Below, piece after piece: positions 142 through 31,602 of a stretch of DNA of 32,799 nt. Where the stretch lies: positions 1-32,799 of IMG/VR virus record IMGVR_UViG_3300033183_000402. One strand, written 5' to 3'. The stretch comes from a virus. The notes beneath the pieces were generated by a model. The model was not told where the DNA came from. It ran no database searches and saw only the letters and a program-made list of their open reading frames with translations. A program made the position numbers and the translations under genes. Numbering within the stretch: the first letter of the stretch is position 1; every line of letters begins with the position of its first letter.

Positions 142-1197
142 TTATTTGACGGGTCTAACCACTTGCCCACCGCGTTGATAAACGCGCTTCGTGATTGATG
201 CATTTGCGTGCCCCAACAAGGCTTGTGCTTGAGCCAATTCAAGGTCAGATGCAGCCTTGGGTCGCGCATCCCTGAATTGAAACTTTTGTATGGATTCGGC
301 AAGCTCGGGGTGAGCCTTTGTGGCCGCCGCTCTAGCCGCCACCAAACGCTTGCGATACATGATTTCGGTGAGCTTGGAGCCGCTGTCTGCAGCAATCACA
401 AATGGGCTGAGTTGGTTCTTGCGGTTGGGTATGGTCGCCCGTATTTCGTCCAGCAAGGCGGCTAAACGCCCCTCTATGACGATTTTGAGCATCTTGCCCG
501 TCTTGGCTTGCTTAACCCATACAAAGCCCTCACGCAGGTCAGACCAGCGCATGGCAAATATGTCGGCTGGGCGCTGCCCGGTTAGGTACGCCAACTCCAG
601 CGCAAATCGCAACTCCGGGCTTGAGTGAGCCAACATGGCATCCCAAGTCCGGTCATCCGCAAAATACTCACGCGGCTTTTCGCTGTGCTTCTTTACGCCT
701 CGGCATGGGTTCTCCTTGGCGGTTAGACCCCACTCACGCGCCTTGTTAAAAGCATGGCTGAATAGTGCCAGTTCTCGATTGGCGCGGACAGGTGCGCCTC
801 GGGCGTCTCTGTACTGTGCAATGTGTTGCGGGGTAATGGCATCAACGGCGACATGGGCGAACGCCTTGCGCAGGAACGACAACTCGTACAGGTTGCCTTG
901 TTGGGTGCGTTTCGCCTTCGTGGGAATGATGTCCCGCTCGTAGCGGTCAAAGACCGCGCCCATCGTTCTTGCATCGCGCGGCACTTTACGACCCTGAAGT
1001 TCAGCCCACTTGCGTGGCACTTCAGCTAGGTCGCTGCCCAGTGAAATTTGCACTCGCTTGCCATCGCTGTCAAAGGTTTGGTAGAAGTAGTACGAGCGGA
1101 CTTCCCCTAGTCTGCTTCTGCCACGCTTGTGCTCAACCACACCCGGCGGCAAGGAACGACCGACCGTCTTATTTCGCCCGCTTCCGATTCCGCCCAT
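142..1197 (-). CDS. int: Tyrosine recombinase / phage integrase
   Basis: 351 aa. The C-terminal catalytic region carries RPADIFAMRWSDL and LLGHANASITKRVYQR (the HxxR...Y signature). ATG is preceded by AGGAG with a 7-nt spacer. The gene is adjacent to the att core. Confidence 0.95.
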   Translation of the reverse strand: MGGIGSGRNKTVGRSLPPGVVEHKRGRSRLGEVRSYYFYQTFDSDGKRVQISLGSDLAEVPRKWAELQGRKVPRDARTMGAVFDRYERDIIPTKAKRTQQGNLYELSFLRKAFAHVAVDAITPQHIAQYRDARGAPVRANRELALFSHAFNKAREWGLTAKENPCRGVKKHSEKPREYFADDRTWDAMLAHSSPELRFALELAYLTGQRPADIFAMRWSDLREGFVWVKQAKTGKMLKIVIEGRLAALLDEIRATIPNRKNQLSPFVIAADSGSKLTEIMYRKRLVAARAAATKAHPELAESIQKFQFRDARPKAASDLELAQAQALLGHANASITKRVYQRGGQVVRPVK

Positions 1198-5706: not shown

Positions 5707-5759
5707 TTGCTTGGCTCCTTGGTTAAAGCGTCACTACAGGAGGTGCTGTAGTTGGAGCC

Positions 5760-5790
5760 ATTGTATCAATCAAACCGGTACTCTTTGCAA
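5760..5790 (-). promoter_or_regulatory. Candidate early-left promoter (PL-like)
   Basis: On the minus strand: TTGCAA (5790-5785), a 19-nt spacer, then an extended -10 TGATACAAT (5768-5760). The hexamer TACAAT is the same as in the rightward promoter. A palindrome CTACAG-N6-CTGTAG (5733-5750) lies just downstream. Confidence 0.45.
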
Positions 5791-5874
5791 GCACTTTTTC
5801 TCCACAGTTCAACCGACCCCTTTAGCTATGCCGAAAAAATTAGTTGTAAAGCAGTAAAAAATAATATTTAAGCG

Positions 5875-5900
5875 AAAAAAAAGACCCCGTTTGGGGTCTT
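5875..5900 (-). terminator. Rho-independent terminator of the repressor gene
   Basis: The minus strand reads AAGACCCC-AAAC-GGGGTCTT followed by TTTTTT. It starts 21 nt after the repressor stop codon. Confidence 0.85.
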
Positions 5901-5920
5901 AGGTACTCAAAAAATTTTTT

Positions 5921-7564
5921 TCAACCAGCTCGCCATTTAACCTCGCCGATGACCGCAAATCGCTCTGATGACTTGCTTATCATCTCGGTTTCGTAGTTCG
6001 GGTTGTCGCTCATCACCACAAAATCACCGTCAATCGACCGCTTGAGCCGCTTGATTTTGAGGTCGTCACCATAGCGAATGGCGTAGACCTTGCCATCTTT
6101 GATTTGGCTCACCGGCTTGCAATCAACCAAAACGATATCGTCGTCGTCCAGGTAGGGCGACATGGAGTCCCCATGCACTCGGAAGCACTTGGCGGTCTTT
6201 GCGTCTATGCCCCGGCTGCTAAAGAAGCTTCGGCGAAACACAAGCGTCTCCTCCTGCACGTCCGGGTGGTACTCGGGCGCTGCGCTGCCCCCGCCAGCGG
6301 CAAAGCGCACCTCGTATAAGCCGACCTCGGCGTAAGTCTCATTGAACTGATCAACGCTGCGTACCGTGGACGGGGCTTCGCCTTCCTCTTGCAAGCCCAT
6401 CTCAAGGGCTTGGGACGAAATCCCAAAGACCATCGCCAGCATCTTGATTGAGGCCGGGGAGGGCGGTGTGTAGCCGTTTTCCCAGTTGGATACCGCCTGA
6501 ACCGACACGTCGAGCAGCTTGGCTACCTCGGTCACGCTCAAGCGGCAGCGCTTGCGCCAGCGGCGGATACGCTTGCCCAGCGCCTCATTGCCCATTTCGT
6601 TGGCTAAATACTTGGCTTGCTGGCTCAGGGCGTCCGTGTCTTGTTGGGTGCTTCCATCGGCTTTTTCCGCAACATCGGCCGCTGCCAACTTAAAGTCGTT
6701 TGCTCGAGTTGGGCGTCCGGTCAGAAGGCGGACGAAATCGTCGAGCCTTTTTTCGTCGGGGTTGGTTTGAAACCAATCGTTAAACAGCTGCTCTAGGTGT
6801 GGGTGCGACGGAAACTCGATGCGCTTGTCTTTGCCTTTGAAGCGCATATACGTGCCGCCGGGGTACCGTTCGGCCAGAATTTCTTTAACCCGGCGAAGCT
6901 GTGCCTCTGCCTCGCCATCAGCGGGGGCTTGCCACTGTTGACTAGCCCACAAATCCTCGACGTAGGCGCTCAGGATGTTGGCCTCAAGTTTCATGCACTG
7001 GGCGGTGACAAGCGTCTCCATGATGGTGTCATCACTGAGCGCGGACTCTGCCGCCGTCGCCACATTGGTCGAGATTAAATACTGCCCGTATATCGAAGCA
7101 GCCTTTTCTTTGACATCCAGCCACGGTGGGTTAGGGGTGCCGAAGTGAATCTCGCACAAAGCACGCCCAACCTCAAGCACTTCATCTTCAGCTAAGTCAA
7201 CCGAGCGCAAGATTTCATACGCATCGCGGTCGCGCTTGCGAAGGGCGTCTTTGTCGGTCAATTCTTTGTAGGTGTACTTGCGTGACTCACTGGGTTTGCT
7301 GTCACCAAACAGGTCAAGCAAGCCCCTGACAACCTGCTTGGCTTCACGCCCGTCGCTTTGGCGGATGCGCTCCTCAATCACATCCAAGCCCGAGCGAATC
7401 ACTTTTTTTGCGTCTGAGTCCCTTGGGAATACGTGGAGGTTGCCCTTCTTTGTCTTTGTCTTTACGCCCTTGGGGTTTTCGCCATCAGCCGTACGGCGCA
7501 CCTTGCTCTCAAGGGGTGCGGCCAAAAAGCCAATCATCGGCTCGTCAGGTTTCTTGGTAGCCAA
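5921..7564 (-). CDS. CI/LexA-type phage repressor (XRE HTH plus S24 peptidase) carrying an N-terminal extension of about 325 aa with unknown function
   Basis: 547 aa.
- HTH around residues 328-385: LGKRIRRWRKRCRLSVTEVAKLLDVSVQAVSNWENG.
- Candidate Ala-Gly autocleavage site in VRFAAGGGS.
- S24 Ser in HGDSMSP and Lys in LKIKRL.
- TTG start with GGAGA 6 nt upstream.
- Residues 1-325 match nothing I recognise. Confidence 0.85.
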   Translation of the reverse strand: MATKKPDEPMIGFLAAPLESKVRRTADGENPKGVKTKTKKGNLHVFPRDSDAKKVIRSGLDVIEERIRQSDGREAKQVVRGLLDLFGDSKPSESRKYTYKELTDKDALRKRDRDAYEILRSVDLAEDEVLEVGRALCEIHFGTPNPPWLDVKEKAASIYGQYLISTNVATAAESALSDDTIMETLVTAQCMKLEANILSAYVEDLWASQQWQAPADGEAEAQLRRVKEILAERYPGGTYMRFKGKDKRIEFPSHPHLEQLFNDWFQTNPDEKRLDDFVRLLTGRPTRANDFKLAAADVAEKADGSTQQDTDALSQQAKYLANEMGNEALGKRIRRWRKRCRLSVTEVAKLLDVSVQAVSNWENGYTPPSPASIKMLAMVFGISSQALEMGLQEEGEAPSTVRSVDQFNETYAEVGLYEVRFAAGGGSAAPEYHPDVQEETLVFRRSFFSSRGIDAKTAKCFRVHGDSMSPYLDDDDIVLVDCKPVSQIKDGKVYAIRYGDDLKIKRLKRSIDGDFVVMSDNPNYETEMISKSSERFAVIGEVKWRAG

Positions 7565-10531: not shown

Positions 10532-10746
10532 TTCTTTGTCCAAAGTGCGACGCCCGGATGGGTGTCAAGGAGACCAAGCAGCACAAGCACGGCGTTTTGC
10601 GCCGTAAGTACTGCCCAAATTGTGGTGCTCGCGTCGTGACCGTTGAGTCGGTCATGGAGGTATTAGAGAAGCGGCAATCGGTAGAGGAACGTATTGAGCG
10701 GTTTGTACCCGCGCTGGAGCAAGCATGGCTTTTGATGAAAAGATAG
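10516..10746 (+). CDS. Zinc-ribbon protein (Ogr/Delta- or NrdR-like CxxC...CxxC)
   Basis: 76 aa. CPKCDARMGVKETKQHKHGVLRRKYCPNCGARVVTVESV. The start is uncertain, with a TTG alternative at 10528. Confidence 0.5.
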   Translation: MEFILILCPKCDARMGVKETKQHKHGVLRRKYCPNCGARVVTVESVMEVLEKRQSVEERIERFVPALEQAWLLMKR

Positions 10747-11243
10747 TCCGGGCCTCGACCAGCAAGAACCTGCGCCACCTCGAGCGCCCCTGTGACGTTG
10801 ACGTTTTGGGAGCTAGTGGGATGGCCGCGGCTAACCAAGGCTTGGGTCATTGGGCGTTTAGGGTCAAGTTCCTGCGGGAGCCGAGCATCTTGCATCGCCT
10901 GAGAGACCGGGTCAGGGCGATGGTTGTAGGGCGTGCACGCACCCGCCGTATCCGGGCAAAGGTCGGCGTCCTACATTCGATTGCCGATGCTGCGGTTGCT
11001 TGGTGGGTGAACGATATCTGTCCGCGGTGCAAAGGGGTTCAGTTTGAAAAAGCAGGGCAGACCTTATCAACGCGCGCTTGCCATACCTGCCGCGGTACGG
11101 GCAAACGACGGGAGCCAACGGCCAAAGACATCAAGGCAGACTTGACGCCTGAGAGGTTCGAGGCGGTATTTGGCGATGCGGTGACACGGCTCGAGGAGGC
11201 GTGCACTGAGTACCGGAGTGCGGTGGTGAAGCGATACCGATAA
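10725..11243 (+). CDS. Lambda-Q-like zinc-finger protein, candidate late-gene antiterminator
   Basis: 172 aa. It has two CxxCxGxG-type motifs, CPRCKGV and CHTCRGTG, as in lambda Q (CRDCHGTG, CGRCKGVG). It is the last gene before a 330-bp non-coding region that holds a promoter-like element and a strong terminator. GGAG RBS. Confidence 0.55.
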   Translation: MAFDEKIVRASTSKNLRHLERPCDVDVLGASGMAAANQGLGHWAFRVKFLREPSILHRLRDRVRAMVVGRARTRRIRAKVGVLHSIADAAVAWWVNDICPRCKGVQFEKAGQTLSTRACHTCRGTGKRREPTAKDIKADLTPERFEAVFGDAVTRLEEACTEYRSAVVKRYR

Positions 11244-11270
11244 AAGCCCGGACGCACTAAATGTGGTGAG

Positions 11271-11298
11271 TTGCAATTGTGGAGGCACTCGCTACCAT
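11271..11298 (+). promoter_or_regulatory. Candidate late promoter (PR'-like)
   Basis: TTGCAA (11271-11276), 16 nt, TACCAT (11293-11298). It lies about 75 nt upstream of the terminator. The hexamer matches are weak. Confidence 0.3.
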
Positions 11299-11373
11299 CA
11301 CACCTATAAGAACAATAACTATCTTGACCATTTGAGGGGCAAGCTCGCCCTGAAATTTTCAAGGTAAAGAAAG

Positions 11374-11402
11374 GCCCGCCTAGAGCGGGCTTTGTTGTTT
11401 TT
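11374..11402 (+). terminator. Rho-independent terminator (tR'-like) between the Q-like gene and the late genes
   Basis: GCCCGC (11374-11379), loop CTAGA, GCGGGC (11385-11390), then TTTGTTGTTTTT. Confidence 0.8.
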
Positions 11403-11573
11403 GGTTAGTCGCAGTTGCCAACTGAATCTTATTACGACTGACCCCAAAGTGCCAGTGCCGTTCTTAGTGGCGCGATAAAAAACAGCGGCAGCACGTTGAT
11501 GCGGGACAGTCCGAGGTTATTGGTCTCCTTGACCCGGACGGCAGGCGCGTGCCTATTTGATTGCGAGGTTTGT

Positions 11574-11741
11574 ATGCCACCAGTATCCAAAGCGCAGCAT
11601 CGCTTCATGCAAGCCGCGGCCAACGACCCACAGATGCGAAAGAAGCTCGGCGTCAGCCGTCAGGTCGCGCGTGAGTTCGTAAAGGCCGCCGAGATGGGCC
11701 GTGGCTACCAATCGCTGCCTGCCAAAAAGGGCAAAAAGTAA
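11574..11741 (+). CDS. DUF3008-like small protein
   Basis: The track ORF starts at 11496. I prefer the ATG at 11574, which has GAGG upstream. 55 aa, MPPVSKAQHRFMQAAANDPQMRKKLG..., typical of the small DUF3008 phage proteins. Its stop overlaps the next start (TAATG). Confidence 0.65.
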   Translation: MPPVSKAQHRFMQAAANDPQMRKKLGVSRQVAREFVKAAEMGRGYQSLPAKKGKK

Positions 11742-13150
11742 TGGCTGGCTTGTTTGGCCCTGCTCCAAAAGAGCCGTACTACGCCAAGCGAGTACGTGGC
11801 GAGGTGCCCAAAGGCTACCGGCAAGTCGCTGGTTTTTTGGCTGAGACGCCGGGCTTTGCTGGTGATGCGGTATCCGCGGCTGACCTAATCAGCGGCATCA
11901 AGGACAAAGATTGGCTCAAGGCGAGCTTGGCTGGTGTATCGCTGCTGCCGGGCATCCCCAACCTTGGCGGCATCATCATTGGCCGCAAAGCCAAAACCTT
12001 TGACGAGGGCGCTGCCAAGCAGTACTTGGAGAACAAGACCGCGGGTGCGCCAAAGGAAACCAACTGGGCGCTGACCGGTACGGGGCAGACGCCACTGGGT
12101 GATGTCGTGCAAGAAATTGACGACAGCGGCGCTTATCTCAAAAGCACCATTCCGGTGGTCGAGGAGCCAAAGGTCATTTACTCCCGCCTGGAAGACATGA
12201 CCAAGCGCAACGCGGATGGGTTGGACGAGGTTGCCTACAAGCAGACCCGAGATGAATACGCCCGCCAAATGGATAGGGCGGTACGGCTGGGGAACATCTT
12301 TGAGCACCCTGAGTTGTACAAGGCCTACCCCGAGATTGCTGACATGCGTGTCTCAGGACTGTATGAGACAACGGGTCGGTTGCGTGGTTCTCTTAGCCCG
12401 GGTGAAAACCGCATCCGCGTTAAGTCAAGCGCCGACCCTGACCAGCAGAGGTCAACTCTCTTGCATGAGATACAGCACGCTATTCAGTTCAAAGAGGGCT
12501 TTCCCTTGGGTGGTAACACCTCCCAGGCAGAGGCGGCAGTGGATGCTGCTATGCGACGCGATATGTCTGGCCCAACGCGTGAAAAGGCTGTTTACAACGC
12601 CATCGCTGCTGAGGTAGGGCAGGTTAACCGCGTGCGGTACGCCCGGCGACTTAAGGAACTCTCTACCTCCGAGACCATCACTCCGCGACGTATTTTCAAT
12701 CAGGCGGGATGGTACGAACACGGTGACAAGATTCGCCAAGAGTTGGGGCCGATGCCCAAGCGCTCGGGTGAGGAGCAAAAGCGCTGGCTGCGGGATGCCG
12801 CGGATAGGCTGTATCGCCACGAGGATGCCAAAGGCCGTTTTGACAGCCCGTACCACGATTTATCTGACCGTGACCTAGTAAACATGCTCCGCAGGCAAGA
12901 GCGCAAGCTGGACAAGCAGCAGCCCAAGCTTAAGGAGTTTTTTGACCAAGAGAACCGTTGGCGGCGCATCAACCAGTTAGGCCCGGGCGAGAAGTACCTG
13001 GCGCATGGTGGTGAGGCTGAGTCACGGCTGGTGCAGGCTCGCCGGGATTTGAACCCGGTCGAGCGCAAGGTTTACTACCCGTTTGGTGAGCGGGATGCGG
13101 GTTACCCGTACGCGTATGACATGTCGCCATCGCTTTTGTTTAGACCCTGA
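11741..13150 (+). CDS. Hypothetical protein with an HExxH zincin-type motif
   Basis: 469 aa. STLLHEIQHAIQFKEG is encoded at about 12464-12478. The rest is not recognised. It is translationally coupled to the DUF3008 gene and lies upstream of the terminase genes. Confidence 0.7.
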   Translation: MAGLFGPAPKEPYYAKRVRGEVPKGYRQVAGFLAETPGFAGDAVSAADLISGIKDKDWLKASLAGVSLLPGIPNLGGIIIGRKAKTFDEGAAKQYLENKTAGAPKETNWALTGTGQTPLGDVVQEIDDSGAYLKSTIPVVEEPKVIYSRLEDMTKRNADGLDEVAYKQTRDEYARQMDRAVRLGNIFEHPELYKAYPEIADMRVSGLYETTGRLRGSLSPGENRIRVKSSADPDQQRSTLLHEIQHAIQFKEGFPLGGNTSQAEAAVDAAMRRDMSGPTREKAVYNAIAAEVGQVNRVRYARRLKELSTSETITPRRIFNQAGWYEHGDKIRQELGPMPKRSGEEQKRWLRDAADRLYRHEDAKGRFDSPYHDLSDRDLVNMLRRQERKLDKQQPKLKEFFDQENRWRRINQLGPGEKYLAHGGEAESRLVQARRDLNPVERKVYYPFGERDAGYPYAYDMSPSLLFRP

Positions 13151-13186: not shown

Positions 13187-13483
13187 ATGGACGATTCCAC
13201 AAAAATAGAGAGAAATAGAGCGGCTGGCAAGCCTCCCCGTGCTGGGATGGGCAGGCCAAAGGGTTGCTCTAACAAGAAGACACAGGCTGCCAAAGACGCC
13301 ATTGCAGACGCTGCACTGGCTTTGGGTGGCACCAAACGGCTGGTCGAGTGGGCCAAGTCCGACCCGAACAATGAGCGGGTGTTTTGGGGCACGATTTACC
13401 CCAAGCTGCTGCCTCTGCAGGTCGGTGGTGATGCTGGCAACCCGATTGAGCACATGGTTGTTGCATGGGCAAGCGAGAGCTAG
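13187..13483 (+). CDS. Putative small terminase subunit / DNA-binding packaging protein
   Basis: The track ORF starts at TTG 13166. I prefer the ATG at 13187. 98 aa. The basic N-terminus GRPKGCSNKKTQ is typical of terS-like/DUF5681 proteins. It lies upstream of terL. Confidence 0.45.
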   Translation: MDDSTKIERNRAAGKPPRAGMGRPKGCSNKKTQAAKDAIADAALALGGTKRLVEWAKSDPNNERVFWGTIYPKLLPLQVGGDAGNPIEHMVVAWASES

Positions 13484-13526
13484 TTAATTCAAACACTCTG
13501 GGCACGTTTGAGGCACGTTGGGTTAA

Positions 13527-13916
13527 TTAGCGGCGCGCCTCGGGGAGTTGCTTCCATAAATCGATGAGAGTTCCCACAACCGTATTTTGGGGGGAAGCGG
13601 TGCAGCGTTTTTTGATTTCCCAGTAAAAGCTGTCGTAGTCGGGGAGTGCCTTTGCGCTCACAGGACGGTTGTTATCCATTTGGGCGGATGCAGTCCCAAG
13701 GTTAAGCCCGCTCAAAAAAGAAGAGAAGGCAACATTCCAAGTTCGTATCCATTGTTTGTTGTCTTTTACTTCCGAGGAGTCTGTTAAAAAGCTGCCGCAG
13801 GAGGCTGTAACGAGTCCCTTCATAACAGAGTCCTCTTTCGCATGGGGTTGACCCATTGCGCCAATCACTAGAGTCAAGGCCAGGGCCAATCGATAGGCTA
13901 TTTGACGAAACAACAT
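13527..13916 (-). CDS. Exported hypothetical protein (Sec signal peptide), antisense moron between terS and terL
   Basis: The track start is GTG 13922. I prefer the ATG at 13916 because GGAGG lies 5 nt upstream. 129 aa. N-terminus MLFRQIAYRLALALTLVIGAMGQPHA|KED. Two Cys in the mature part. The DNA is visibly more AT-rich than the flanks. Confidence 0.75.
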   Translation of the reverse strand: MLFRQIAYRLALALTLVIGAMGQPHAKEDSVMKGLVTASCGSFLTDSSEVKDNKQWIRTWNVAFSSFLSGLNLGTASAQMDNNRPVSAKALPDYDSFYWEIKKRCTASPQNTVVGTLIDLWKQLPEARR

Positions 13917-13927
13917 GAGCACCTCCT

Positions 13928-15199
13928 ATGGGAAAACGTGAGTTGATTATCCCCTACTCGCCTCGGGCGCAGCAGTTAGAGATTCATGGTGCGATGGCTG
14001 ATGCCCGCTTTGGGGTAGTGGTGGCGCATCGGCGGCTGGGTAAGACGGTCGCTGCCATCAACCACATCATCAGGAAGGCGGTTGAGTGCCAAAAGGAGGC
14101 ACCGCGTTACGCCTACATCGCCCCGACGTACACCCAAGCCAAGCGGATTGCTTGGGACTACCTGGTCAAGTACACCGAGGTGCTGGAGGCCAAGCAGAAC
14201 ATCACCGAGTTGCGGGTGGACTTTTGGAATCGGCGCATCCAGTTGGCGGGGTCAGACAACCCTGACTCGCTGAGGGGTCAGTACTTTGATGGCGTCATCT
14301 TGGACGAGTGGGCTGACCAAAACCCGCGCTTGTGGTCTGAAATCATCCGCCCGGCACTGGCTGACCGCCATGGGTGGGCGTTGTTTCTAGGTACACCCAA
14401 GGGTGCCAACCACTTTAAGGACATTCGCGACCGCGCTGAGGTCGAGGACGGGTGGAAGCTGCTGGAGTTCAAAGCCAGCGAGACAGGTATCTTGGCATCC
14501 GATGAGTTGGCTCAAGCCCGCCGCGAGATGGGCGAGGAGAAATACCTCCAGGAGTTTGAATGTTCGTTTACCGCTGCGGTGGAGGGTTCGTACTATGGAA
14601 GTGTCCTTAACGACCTTGATGGACGCGGGCGGCTGGTTGATATTTCTCGCGATGATTTATGCAAGACATTTACTGCGTGGGATTTAGGGGTTGGCGATAG
14701 CACAGCCATTTGGGTGGCTCAGGTAACCGGGCAAGAGGTCAGGCTCATCGACTTTGTGGAGAACCACGGGGTGGGGCTTGATTGGTACGTGAATTGGCTG
14801 CGCGAGCGCAAGTGGCACACCGCCGAGCACATCCTGCCTCATGACGTTCAGGTCAGAGAGTTGACCACGGGCAAGAGCCGAAAAGAGGTACTCGAGGATG
14901 CGGGGCTGTCTATCACGGTGGCACCAAGGCTGACGATTGACGATGGCATCCAAGCGGTGCGCCGGATGTTGCCGAGGTGCTGGTTCAACATGCCAACAGT
15001 CAGGCAGGGGTATGACGCCTTGGCTAACTACCGCCGTGAGTACGACGACAAGCGCAACGTGTTTTACGACAAGCCCCTGCACGACTGGGCCAGCCACGCG
15101 TCTGACGCGTTTCGGTACTTGGCCACGGGTATGCAGGACAAGACAACGGCAAGCGACTGGTCAAAGCCGCTGGCGGTCAATACCTCGTGGGTGGTGTAG
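13928..15199 (+). CDS. terL: Terminase large subunit
   Basis: 423 aa. Walker A-like AHRRLGKT, Walker B-like GVILDEW, and a C-terminal nuclease region with AWDLGVGDSTAIWV. Confidence 0.9.
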   Translation: MGKRELIIPYSPRAQQLEIHGAMADARFGVVVAHRRLGKTVAAINHIIRKAVECQKEAPRYAYIAPTYTQAKRIAWDYLVKYTEVLEAKQNITELRVDFWNRRIQLAGSDNPDSLRGQYFDGVILDEWADQNPRLWSEIIRPALADRHGWALFLGTPKGANHFKDIRDRAEVEDGWKLLEFKASETGILASDELAQARREMGEEKYLQEFECSFTAAVEGSYYGSVLNDLDGRGRLVDISRDDLCKTFTAWDLGVGDSTAIWVAQVTGQEVRLIDFVENHGVGLDWYVNWLRERKWHTAEHILPHDVQVRELTTGKSRKEVLEDAGLSITVAPRLTIDDGIQAVRRMLPRCWFNMPTVRQGYDALANYRREYDDKRNVFYDKPLHDWASHASDAFRYLATGMQDKTTASDWSKPLAVNTSWVV

Positions 15200-30056: not shown

Positions 30057-30536
30057 ATGGAACCCCTCAGCATCCTTGCGGCTGCCTCCGCTGCCGTAGG
30101 GACTGCCAAGCGCCTAGTCGAAATGGGCGGCGATATTGAGAACATGATTCAGCAACTGGGCAAGTGGGCTTCCTACGCCGACCAGCTTAGGTCATGGGCT
30201 GGCAGGGTGGAAAGCAAGCCGCCCCTGTTCAAAGCGCTGAACTTTGGCAACGCCACCCAAGAGGCGCTCAACGCCGTCATGGTGAAAAACAAGCTGGCGG
30301 CCCAAGAGAAAGAAATCGCCGAGTTGCTCCAGTGGCACGCGCCACCTGGGTCGTATGAGGCGTTCATTGCCGAGCGGCGGCGTATCCGCACCGAGCAGAA
30401 CCGGATGATTTACCTGCAAGCCCAGCGGCGCAAGGCGTTTTTAATCAACGCGGGGTATTTGGGTGCGCTAGCGGTGCTTTTGAGTGCGCTGGCGTGGTTG
30501 GGCTTTATTGGCTACGAGATGTGGCAGGGGCGTTAG
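30057..30536 (+). CDS. Hypothetical membrane protein with a C-terminal TM segment
   Basis: 159 aa. The start abuts the upstream stop (TAAATG). The C-terminal TM segment is FLINAGYLGALAVLLSALAWLGFIGY. Confidence 0.6.
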   Translation: MEPLSILAAASAAVGTAKRLVEMGGDIENMIQQLGKWASYADQLRSWAGRVESKPPLFKALNFGNATQEALNAVMVKNKLAAQEKEIAELLQWHAPPGSYEAFIAERRRIRTEQNRMIYLQAQRRKAFLINAGYLGALAVLLSALAWLGFIGYEMWQGR

Positions 30537-30537
30537 G

Positions 30538-30864
30538 CTATTTGCAGCTAGCTTGGCCAAGGGTGACCCGTTTATTCTGGTTTACCAAGACGCCAATATC
30601 TATGACTTTGACGATGACCTTTTTGCCTTTCAGCCCCTCGTCGTACAAAACCTCGCAGACGTAATTCGCGTAACCGTTGCGATTGGTGCCGTCATTAAGC
30701 ACCCCCACCAACAGGGTGCCCGGGGTTGACCACGCCGCGTCTTTGATTTTGACCTCCTCCTTAATCGGTTTTTGCGCCACAGCTTTCTGTTTGCTCTCGG
30801 GGATGGAGGCTTCATAGGGTTTATCTGTGCCGCTGAAATCACAAAAGCTCACCCCGAAACTCAA
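30538..30864 (-). CDS. Hypothetical protein of the antisense moron cassette (start unresolved)
   Basis: 108 aa from TTG 30864. The in-frame upstream sequence encodes a hydrophobic segment (WRLGWVIIF) but has no ATG, GTG or TTG. The region is AT-richer and convergent with the late gene that ends at 30536. Confidence 0.5.
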   Translation of the reverse strand: MSFGVSFCDFSGTDKPYEASIPESKQKAVAQKPIKEEVKIKDAAWSTPGTLLVGVLNDGTNRNGYANYVCEVLYDEGLKGKKVIVKVIDIGVLVNQNKRVTLGQASCK

Positions 30865-30960
30865 AAAAATAATTACCCAGCCTAATCTCCAAATATTGAA
30901 TCCCCGTGGTGTCGATGCAGGATTAGGCGGCCAATACGAGCTGTGAAAATGGCTGAAGCG

Positions 30961-31602
30961 CTAGATGTCATCCTTATTTTTAAGCTGCCGTTTTTCTTCC
31001 TTTAATCGCTGCCGGCGCATCGCCTCACGCCATGTTTCGCCAGCCATCTCAATACCCCAGCCCCGCCCGCAAGACTCGGACTTCAAGGCTAAAGTTTTTC
31101 CGTTAGCTTCCCAAAGCCACCAGTCGCAATTCTTTGACTGATTCTTCTTACGAGTCCACATTCCATATTTTGATGTCAAGGCTTGGATGAGGTCTAGCGA
31201 CTCGCCTTCGTAAAAGCCTTCGACAGTAAATTTCGCTACCTTTCCTCCAAGGATGGCGAAGCGGATGGGTCGCCATCTTCCAAGGATTCTGATGTGCATT
31301 TGCTCTAGCCTTGGGTCGGCCTGGAATACGCCCGGTGGAGGCAGGCCATCCCTCTCAAGGCGGGCAAAATTGCCGCTCTTGGCCATACGTTCTTTTTCAC
31401 ACTTTTGCCGGCTTCGTACTGCGTTATTGCCCTCAACCCAGCGCTTCTCACTGAAGTACCGTTGCCTTTCGACCCAAAACTCTTTGTGGGTCTTGACGAC
31501 CAATCCGCAATCCAGTTCAACGTCGACAGAAAAGCCTTTTACCTCCAAAGCGTGGGCGTGAACAGCAAAGGCCAATAGCGCCGCTGCAGTTAGTTTTTTC
31601 AT
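30961..31602 (-). CDS. Exported hypothetical protein (Sec signal peptide), antisense moron cassette
   Basis: 213 aa. GGAGG lies 6 nt upstream of the ATG. Signal peptide MKKLTAAALLAFAVHAHA|LEV. Four Cys and a highly charged C-terminal tail. Confidence 0.75.
   Translation of the reverse strand: MKKLTAAALLAFAVHAHALEVKGFSVDVELDCGLVVKTHKEFWVERQRYFSEKRWVEGNNAVRSRQKCEKERMAKSGNFARLERDGLPPPGVFQADPRLEQMHIRILGRWRPIRFAILGGKVAKFTVEGFYEGESLDLIQALTSKYGMWTRKKNQSKNCDWWLWEANGKTLALKSESCGRGWGIEMAGETWREAMRRQRLKEEKRQLKNKDDI

Follow-up and report, generated by a model that had tools for sequence, protein, structure and literature searches.

Why would a temperate phage carry, between the two genes of its terminase, a small gene that faces the other way? 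The question is raised by a stretch of viral DNA of 32,799 nucleotides (nt), IMG/VR record IMGVR_UViG_3300033183_000402 (referred to below as the window, all coordinates being positions in it), in which an opposite-strand gene for a predicted exported protein of 129 amino acids (aa), here named orfX, separates a putative small terminase gene, terS, from the large terminase gene, terL. On balance, we favor the view that orfX is a minimal, horizontally exchanged moron cassette, made of one open reading frame (ORF) plus 11 nt with its Shine-Dalgarno (SD) sequence, and that it would supply a lysogen with a periplasmic accessory factor. Morons were defined for phages HK97 and HK022 (Juhala/Hendrix definition), with HK97 gene 15 as an example (PMC3594210). 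An earlier interpretation made from the letters alone (hereafter, the sequence-only reading) had called the gene a moron, and the term is apt: orfX is a compositionally distinct, opposite-strand addition with a predicted exported product, it is carried by a temperate phage, absent from relatives, and horizontally exchanged, and because of these features it counts as a moron in the usual sense.

An inserted gene at a conserved terminase junction

The opposite-strand ORF described earlier between the terminase genes is present. It spans 13527-13922 on the minus strand when read from a GTG, and the 129-aa coding sequence (13527-13916), predicted to specify an exported, all-helical protein with cysteines C40 and C105, begins at the ATG at 13916-13914, divergent from terL and 11 nt away from it. 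Five nucleotides before this ATG lies the SD sequence GGAGG (13922-13926, minus strand), 1 nt from the terL ATG at 13928; we confirmed these coordinates and, with them, the claim that terL is preceded by CCTCC and has no SD sequence, since the GGAGG of orfX occupies positions 13926-13922. The predicted pairing of the orfX leader with the 3' end of 16S rRNA (-11.5 kcal/mol) is the strongest among 26 genes compared.

As in other morons, the composition of orfX differs from that of its surroundings. Its G+C content is 50.0%, compared with 57.4% for the window, a value matched or undercut by 2.8% of 390-nt segments (mean, 57.5%; standard deviation, 3.2), and G+C at third codon positions (GC3) is 54.6% in orfX, 72.6% in terL, and 74.2% in the portal gene. 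The sliding-window and codon composition checks suggested with the sequence-only reading (GC3, in round figures, 55% against 73%) agree with it in direction; the size of the difference had been slightly overstated, the hand-counted 43-50% against 58-62% becoming 47.5-48.5% in the lowest 200-nt segments at orfX and 55-60% in the flanks.

Upstream of orfX, the 98-aa putative small terminase gene occupies 13187-13483 on the plus strand. Its label is positional only, the match being to PHROG 11043, which has no assigned function; the protein gave no Pfam or PDB hit. Homologues of the protein are encoded by genes that overlap terL in many phages, including relatives of the present one and Microcystis phage Mae-JY35. 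The large terminase gene (13928-15199, plus strand; Pfam Terminase_6N, PHROG 2) has lost this overlap. We compared the junction with 80 related loci in IMG/VR, whose TerL is 69-75% identical to that of the window. None of the 80 has a match to the 129-aa protein; a terS homologue, detected in 24 of them, abuts or overlaps terL there, and in every one of the 66 relatives with at least 600 nt of upstream sequence an ORF of 60 or more codons on the same strand runs 10-40 nt into terL. The usual state of the group is a terS-like gene overlapping terL, which would imply translational coupling, and orfX represents extra DNA at this conserved junction. The synteny comparison therefore bears out the sequence-only reading for this phage group. 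Its broader statement, that the junction is almost never interrupted, does not hold in general, as Burkholderia phage CSP3 carries the moron orf15 between its terminase genes (PMC10269572).

The history of the insertion can be read from both sides of the gene. Within the 3' end of terS (13465-13483, ATGGGCAAGCGAGAGCTAG), the terL start of the ancestral overlap is preserved and gives MGKREL when translated in frame with terL, and the start now used by terL, at 13928, is another copy of it, ATGGGAAAACGTGAGTTG. The terS/terL overlap has thus been duplicated without damage to either gene. The 43-nt spacer between the stop codons of terS and orfX (13484-13526) has no T-tract terminator and contains a relic of the 3' end of another terS type: positions 13507-13530, TTTGAGGCACGTTGGGTTAATTAG, read FEARWVN followed by a stop, the counterpart in contig L086 reading LEVRWVN and a stop (19 of 21 nt identical by eye). 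A direct repeat, GCACGTT-N5-GCACGTT (13502-13520), lies in the same spacer. As a separate observation, the plus strand from 13465 to 13530 forms a relic mini-ORF, MGKRELVNSNTLGTFEARWVN followed by a stop, which runs from the ancestral terL start to the relic of the other terS type and contains the GCACGTT repeat.

A predicted periplasmic protein of a two-cysteine family

No Pfam, PHROG, or NCBIfam family matched orfX, and DNA and protein searches of GenBank phages returned no match to it. A search of 5.8 billion proteins yielded four homologue clusters, 83-93% identical, all on short metagenomic contigs and always placed 11 nt divergent from terL. In four contigs (L081-L084), a second gene of 125 aa, orfY, follows orfX on the same strand; its product is 35-38% identical to that of orfX and has in common with it a signal sequence, the motifs S-C-x-x-F-L, F-L-S-G-[LI]-N, and Y-W-E-x-K-K-x-C-x-x-x-P-Q, and two conserved cysteines. 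When a profile was run exhaustively against 1.84 billion representative proteins, no more than nine hits were obtained. A second profile search recovered 42 proteins, small and exported, that follow the pattern G-x-G-x-x-S-C ... AWAQGFMSGxN ... YCxxHP. Residues G34, C40, G70, and C105 are invariant across 40 aligned sequences, and, with the signal peptides removed, orfX/orfY align with the AWAQGFMSG family at an hhalign probability of 98% (E 2.2e-13, 93 columns).

By its motifs, its signal sequence, and this profile match obtained without the signal peptide, orfX is classed as a divergent member of an uncharacterized family of small two-cysteine periplasmic proteins of Proteobacteria. The members of that family (P0011-P0046) resemble orfX and orfY in length, signal sequence, invariant G/C/G/C positions, and predicted helices. 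They differ in being chromosomal and stand-alone, whereas orfX and orfY are carried by phages, reach no more than 16-25% identity with them, and have the submotifs FLSG[LI]N and YWE[ILV]KK to themselves. On long contigs, family members are found in varied neighborhoods (including a Kiloniellales genome and an alphaproteobacterial metagenome-assembled genome [MAG]), and no toxin partner was found beside these chromosomal genes. Peptide-pattern scans for relatives of orfX and orfY gave none in IMG/VR or in JGI metagenome contigs, and in GTDB a single weak partial match in a Pseudolabrys MAG.

The Sec-type signal sequence proposed by the sequence-only reading is well supported. Codons 1-26 (13839-13916, minus strand) specify an n-region with R4 and R9 and then a 12-residue uncharged core, L10-M21 (the h-region), with a best 11-residue Kyte-Doolittle mean of 2.56; an equivalent segment is present in 40 of 40 family members, and orfX has no other hydrophobic segment. 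The proposed cleavage between HA and KED, on the other hand, is doubtful, as it puts a proline at -3 (PHA before K). A simple -3/-1 rule gives candidate sites after G19, A20, or G22, and cleavage probably follows G22 (AMG before QP), or else A26, the position aligned with the canonical site of orfY (AVA before KE). We rejected a lipoprotein reading: there is no lipobox near the h-region, and the TASC motif, at residue 40, is too distant from the N terminus. From these features, we consider it very probable that orfX encodes a real, exported protein. An AlphaFold2 (AF2) model built from 8 sequences had a predicted local distance difference test (pLDDT) score of 62.7 and gave meaningless Foldseek hits; with 40 sequences, the model was all-helical at a modest pLDDT of 69.9. 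The mature protein would be an all-helical, periplasmic protein of about 103-107 aa with one disulfide, C40-C105.

Spread of the cassette by recombination

Phages that differ in terL (about 72% identity) carry cassettes with about 95% identity to each other. Among five orfX alleles, synonymous divergence (dS) is 0.04-0.10, compared with 0.5-2.4 for the adjacent terL genes on the same contigs, where the ratio of nonsynonymous to synonymous divergence (dN/dS) is 0.04-0.17. Between the window and contig L085, identity is 92-97% from 13500 to about 13955 and 57-83% in terL beyond about 13980, and the same cassette stands beside two unrelated terS types, one ending in ...PIEMTVVAWANG (the window) and the other in ...AAIFWLKTR...LEVRWVN (L086 and L088). 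Given the low dS of orfX, the drop in identity against L085, and the two terS types, the cassette must have spread recently by recombination among diverged phages, and comparison of these sequences leaves little doubt in our minds that orfX is a horizontally exchanged insertion. The added unit is very small: the stop codons of orfX and terS overlap in L086 and L088, so that the added DNA amounts to the ORF and 11 nt. L085 combines the window type of terS with the other type of terL, and the conserved cassette may act as a homology patch through which terS is shuffled against terL.

Both orfX and orfY are flanked by a terS 3' relic and a terL 5' relic. The spacer between the two genes in L081 contains a terS 3' relic, followed by a diverged terL 5' relic and GGAG, and in L089 and L090 orfY-type genes stand behind noncoding terL 5' relics, one truncated and the other frameshifted. 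Four states of the cassette are thus represented, namely, empty, orfX, orfX with orfY, and orfY only, the last in a phage remnant. That remnant, L089 (1.6 kb; 1-1577), is made up of four parts: the 3' half of a gene homologous to 30538-30864 comes first, the last 35 codons of the orf159 homologue (~30428-30536) next, codons 1-24 of terL third, and an intact orfY-type gene last. Its terL codon 24 is joined to the tail of the orf159 homologue, about 16 kb of morphogenesis genes being missing relative to the window, and a CoiA-like gene takes the place of most of terS, of which only the 3' relic IPIEMTALTWAN is left. If the contig is not chimeric, it represents a decayed prophage that has kept both opposite-strand accessory regions, as would be expected of genes useful to the host.

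Possible expression in the lysogen and a possible periplasmic role

The sequence-only reading had argued that any promoter of orfX must lie inside the 5' codons of terL and had pointed to GATAAT as a candidate -10 element. The first point follows from the small size of the inserted DNA, which leaves no room for a promoter, and the hexamer is indeed present on the minus strand at 13946-13951, inside terL codons 7-8 (AATAAT in relatives). A candidate -35 element, CTGCTG, is located 18 nt upstream of it at 13970-13975 on the same strand (TTGCTG, TTGCTC, or TTGCTT in relatives). Across eight upstream regions, TTGCT and ATAAT are invariant and 17-18 nt apart with a variable spacer, the -35 of the window itself being CTGCTG, and the arrangement TTGCTN-17/18 nt-(G/A)ATAAT, together with GGAG, is kept in three noncoding terL relics upstream of orfY-type genes. 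These patterns weakly support a promoter of the form CTGCTG/TTGCTN-17/18 nt-(G/A)ATAAT within terL. Expression of orfX in the lysogen is a proposition that could equally well prove right or wrong.

A lead to the function of the product comes from the HdeA/HdeB/YmgD group of proteins. Among full-length members of the two-cysteine family, 5 of 14 match the Pfam HdeA model (PF06411), with the best, P0014, scoring 28 bits against a gathering score of 22; the mature parts of P0018 and P0014 score 21 bits (E 4e-4) and 14 bits, respectively. The whole family aligns with E. coli HdeA and HdeB at an hhalign probability of 85% with both cysteines in register, C40 and C105 aligning with the HdeA cysteines. 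In a Foldseek search of PDB with the 40-sequence model, the top four hits were HdeA, YmgD, HdeA, and HdeB, with template modeling scores of about 0.5 on the target. Like HdeA/HdeB (PF06411) and YmgD, orfX is predicted to specify a signal peptide and then a helical domain of about 90-105 aa, with one conserved cysteine pair; the tandem paralogues orfX-orfY recall hdeA-hdeB, and two distant family members touch the Pfam model. The differences from HdeA lie in the spacing of the cysteines (65 residues in orfX versus 48 in HdeA) and in the family motifs G-x-G-x-x-S-C, F-[LM]-S-G-x-N, and Y-C-x-x-x-P, which are not HdeA motifs. Neither full-length nor mature orfX hit PF06411 at E <= 1, the match of orfY (E 0.016-0.1) is confined to its signal-peptide half, and a BFVD fold search with orfX gave no match. 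Three weak and concordant signals nevertheless make an HdeA/HdeB/YmgD-like fold a reasonable, suggestive lead, and the two-cysteine family may be a remote branch of that fold. An HdeA-like holdase or protective role for orfX itself is possible, though we hold it unlikely.

In contigs L092-L094 (1-575), near the chromosomal family member P0030 (Kiloniellales by its NCBI source), a 202-aa protein has a weak HdeA match together with PG_binding_1, so that HdeA-like modules also occur fused to peptidoglycan-binding domains.

In the reading that we favor, the cassette occupies the overlap between terS and terL in a small clade of temperate phages, probably with betaproteobacterial hosts, that integrate at tRNA-Asn and have an SU10-type portal. 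orfX would be transcribed in the lysogen from a sigma-70-type promoter made of the first ~16 terL codons and translated from its very strong SD sequence, and the product, once exported, would be a small periplasmic accessory factor of the binding or holdase type that benefits the lysogen envelope, general stress protection being somewhat likelier than a specific block to incoming phage. As a side effect, the insertion would break the translational coupling of terS and terL, and terL would then have to initiate without an SD sequence on an unstructured leader. In line with this, the 86-nt region around the terL start has less structure than 197 of 200 shuffled versions (z +1.9), an open leader that is compatible with SD-independent initiation.

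Several lines of evidence weigh against this reading: (i) the HdeA signal is fragile, since the hhalign probability against HdeA and HdeB falls to 5% once signal peptides are removed, and to 25% (P 7.5e-4) for the family without orfX/orfY and signal peptides, so that much of the 85% stems from signal peptides, and we rejected that value as proof of HdeA kinship; mature orfX and orfY gave no Pfam HdeA hit, PDB profile searches found no HdeA, and the Foldseek E values for HdeA, YmgD, and HdeB are 0.4-2.6 with an AF2 model of modest confidence; (ii) a consensus scan found no promoter upstream of orfX, the -35 candidate of the window, CTGCTG, is poor, the promoter-like elements coincide with conserved terL codons, and the -10-like hexamer also occurs in some relatives without orfX because it encodes L-I-I; (iii) although a moron would carry a terminator of its own, a consensus scan found no intrinsic terminator behind orfX, where an 8-bp stem over the stop codon lacks a T-tract and has a z-score of only -1.7; (iv) the orfX alleles have a dN/dS of about 1 (0.6-1.4), with variable sites spread 19/16/18 over the codon positions, and hence show no net purifying selection in the recent past; (v) clustered patches of variation would suggest a partner-specific binder better than a general chaperone; and (vi) L089 is a single 1.6-kb metagenomic contig, possibly chimeric.

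Alternative explanations

Points (iv) and (v) lead to the alternative that survives best, in which orfX is a superinfection exclusion or immunity factor, that is, a periplasmic binder of a variable partner (an ejection protein, a receptor domain, or a periplasm-acting toxin) engaged in an arms race. Superinfection exclusion and receptor masking were the functions put forward in the sequence-only reading, and no evidence obtained here directly supports either of them. The first moron to be described, HK97 gene 15, encodes an exclusion protein (PMC3594210). Variable sites in orfX are clustered (runs test, p 0.007): substitutions are gathered into a few patches, and the blocks separating these lack even synonymous changes, the longest unchanged stretches measuring 62, 36, and 26 nt, and variable codons avoid the residues held in common with orfY (Fisher test, p 0.006). 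Such variation fits a protein with a constrained core and variable patches, not a dead ORF. Alternative or tandem paralogues in one slot recall immunity-gene arrays, and the phage and its relatives carry further opposite-strand genes for envelope proteins. The arms race, however, lacks statistical backing, as dN/dS is not significantly above 1 (in the best pair, 15 nonsynonymous versus 1 synonymous changes, p ~0.09 by a binomial estimate). Searches of Pfam and PHROG with orfX itself, of named NCBIfam families with the members of its family (none above chance), of BFVD folds, and of GenBank phages (PADLOC was not searched) gave no similarity to any known exclusion, immunity, or defense protein, no homologue with a known function came to light, and the only fold lead points, weakly, to HdeA/HdeB/YmgD-type proteins. 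Well-studied exclusion proteins are mostly membrane anchored or lipoproteins, whereas orfX has no lipobox and no membrane anchor after its signal sequence, and its chromosomal homologues stand alone without a toxin neighbor. We regard an exclusion or immunity role as unlikely, while taking it seriously as a competitor of the protective factor. Two other sources of the pattern were considered and rejected: a diversity-generating retroelement behind the variable patches, for which there is neither a template repeat nor an A-specific pattern, and a pac or cos site behind the nucleotide conservation, which nothing supports.

A bolder proposal joins several of these elements and seems doubtful to us as a whole. 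In it, the terS/terL overlap would be a dedicated moron slot, in which HdeA-like paralogues (orfX, orfY, or both) are swapped as promoterless cassettes via the terS 3' and terL 5' relics; the mRNA from a promoter made of the first terL codons, being antisense to the terL initiation region, would double as a lysogeny lock on the terminase, the products would form a new class of soluble periplasmic exclusion or immunity proteins under diversifying selection, and the cassette would serve as a homology linker for the shuffling of terS.

A third possibility is that the insertion is mainly a regulatory element, with the protein secondary: by uncoupling terL from terS, placing CCUCC before terL, and giving rise to RNA antisense to the terL start, it would keep the terminase off in lysogens or tune it late. 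The cassette does abolish the overlap that is universal in the group; the predicted pairing of terL with the 3' end of 16S rRNA (-1.9 kcal/mol) is the second weakest of the 26 genes; any orfX mRNA started inside terL would be complementary to the terL start region; and nucleotide-level conservation is high without a third-position bias. The sequence-only reading had also suggested that antisense transcription could dampen terL, an idea that no evidence obtained here supports. Against a regulatory role in the first place stand a protein family with conserved residues that also occurs as ordinary chromosomal genes, the absence of any RNA structure that stands out, and the orfY-type gene kept where terL is deleted, whose retention cannot depend on terL regulation. 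We therefore think it improbable that regulation is what the cassette is mainly for. Whatever the protein does, the locus offers a natural experiment in terminase expression, with a group-universal overlap broken and an anti-SD-like sequence where an SD sequence is expected.

It is also quite improbable that orfX is a nonfunctional or decaying ORF carried along by recombination with no selection on its protein. The near-neutral dN/dS and the even spread of variable sites over codon positions would suit such a passenger, as would the lack of any annotated family and the rarity of the gene (nine hits per 1.84 billion representatives; none in IMG/VR, JGI metagenome contigs, or GenBank phages). 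On the other hand, the ORF is intact and free of indels in all five of its distinct alleles, no other SD sequence in the window is as strong as its own, its substitutions are clustered and avoid family-conserved residues (the two tests given above), the paralogue and the wider family keep the same motifs and both cysteines, and the gene is retained in a deletion derivative.

Finally, a periplasmic role in the lytic cycle (in the endolysin/holin pathway or at the cell wall) in place of lysogenic conversion, which the place of the gene in the late region, its predicted periplasmic product, and the presence of a lysozyme-type endolysin and a holin-like gene might suggest, is most improbable, because transcription would run head-on against the late operon, the lysis genes are 18 kb away, the gene is kept in a remnant unable to make virions, and its absence from 80 of 80 related phages means that it is not part of the core lytic program.

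Comparison with known morons

With the precedent of CSP3, which shows that a terS/terL junction can host a moron (PMC10269572), and with morons being well known, orfX is not a new kind of system, and it leaves the understanding of morons unchanged. It resembles the morons of the HK97/HK022 type in being extra DNA of differing G+C content, a single accessory gene in the late region, horizontally exchanged, and (by prediction) directed to the envelope (PMC3594210). It differs from known morons in two respects: (i) the unit is minimal, with no promoter or terminator DNA of its own, so that any promoter consists of terL codons, and (ii) it runs counter to the late operon, and its insertion has abolished a conserved overlap of terS and terL.

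Prophages are also known to encode periplasmic protective enzymes, such as the SodC proteins of Gifsy-2 and Fels-1, which are products of moron-type genes of temperate phages that protect the lysogen. SodC and orfX have in common a moron-type gene and a product exported, in the case of orfX by prediction, to the periplasm. They have no relation in sequence or fold, and no enzymatic motif is evident in orfX.

What distinguishes the present case is that it is clean and well bounded, the added unit being the ORF and 11 nt and its history readable from relics on both sides. Notable features are the small size of the cassette, the legible record of its recombination, the occurrence of paralogous alleles in a single slot, and the loss of coupling between terS and terL. 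In addition, an uncharacterized family picked up by phages from Proteobacteria provides a testable entry to the function of that family, be it stress protection or exclusion.

The phage, its probable host, and other features of the window

The gene content of the window is that of a temperate phage or prophage. Positions 1-47 correspond to the 3' half of a tRNA-Asn(GUU) gene, ending in GGGGAGCCA and followed by a hairpin and T-run (61-90); the fragment was not called by ARAGORN because the tRNA is truncated. Since the integrase gene (142-1197, minus strand) adjoins it, the start of the window is probably an att site. Besides the integrase, the leftward genes include SSB, a RecE-like exonuclease, and Erf, and those for regulation and replication comprise a CI-like repressor (HTH_3 and Peptidase_S24), a replication initiator, NinB, and a weak Q-like match. 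The late region runs from a DUF6782 metallopeptidase-like gene through the putative terS, terL, an SU10-type portal, a scaffold, and the major capsid protein to tail/ejection genes, and a holin-like gene and a Phage_lysozyme endolysin are located at the right end.

The 47-mer of tRNA-Asn is identical in Chromobacteriaceae, Alcaligenaceae, and Burkholderiaceae genomes, and, judged by TerL, Methylophilales phage Venkman (64%) is the closest of the cultured phages. From these two observations the host is probably a betaproteobacterium. The tRNA-Asn fragment narrows the host only to the Betaproteobacteria, and relatives of the integrase gave no host identification. A search of GTDB genomes gave no relatives of terL, and hence no related prophage is present among the species representatives.

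Several other features of the window and its relatives were observed along the way. In the closest relatives without orfX, L047 (2583-3401) and L049 (3180-3611), whose terS shows 67% identity, terL is separated from the portal gene by one or two genes on the opposite strand that encode multipass membrane proteins (121 and 143 aa). The terL-portal gap thus constitutes a further slot for accessory genes, across terL from the orfX site. Directly upstream of terS, a 469-aa protein (11741-13150, plus strand) has a DUF6782/Peptidase_M78-like metallopeptidase motif and weak matches to large polyvalent protein domains (PHROGs 13543 and 11358; LPD23), which makes it an unusual neighbor for packaging genes. 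The region before it, 11223-11740, which separates the DUF6782 gene from the weak Q-like gene (10725-11243), has about 50% G+C and short ORFs only and is a plausible site for the late promoter and antitermination.

The lowest G+C content of the window (43.6%) is found at 5749-6138, at the 3' end of a 547-codon ORF (5921-7564, minus strand). Residues ~315-545 of this ORF match the CI-like repressor (HTH_3 and Peptidase_S24), the low-G+C stretch lying just past that part, and its N-terminal ~300 residues match nothing, so that the true start may be internal. A second opposite-strand island of low G+C content (47-52%) occupies 30538-31602 (minus strand) between the tail/ejection genes and the lysis genes. 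It encodes proteins of 213 and 108 aa, neither of which matched a Pfam or PHROG family; the former has a GGAGG SD sequence and a classic signal peptide, MKKLTAAALLAFAVHAHA, predicted to end before LEV, and the remnant L089 has retained a homologue of the gene for the latter.

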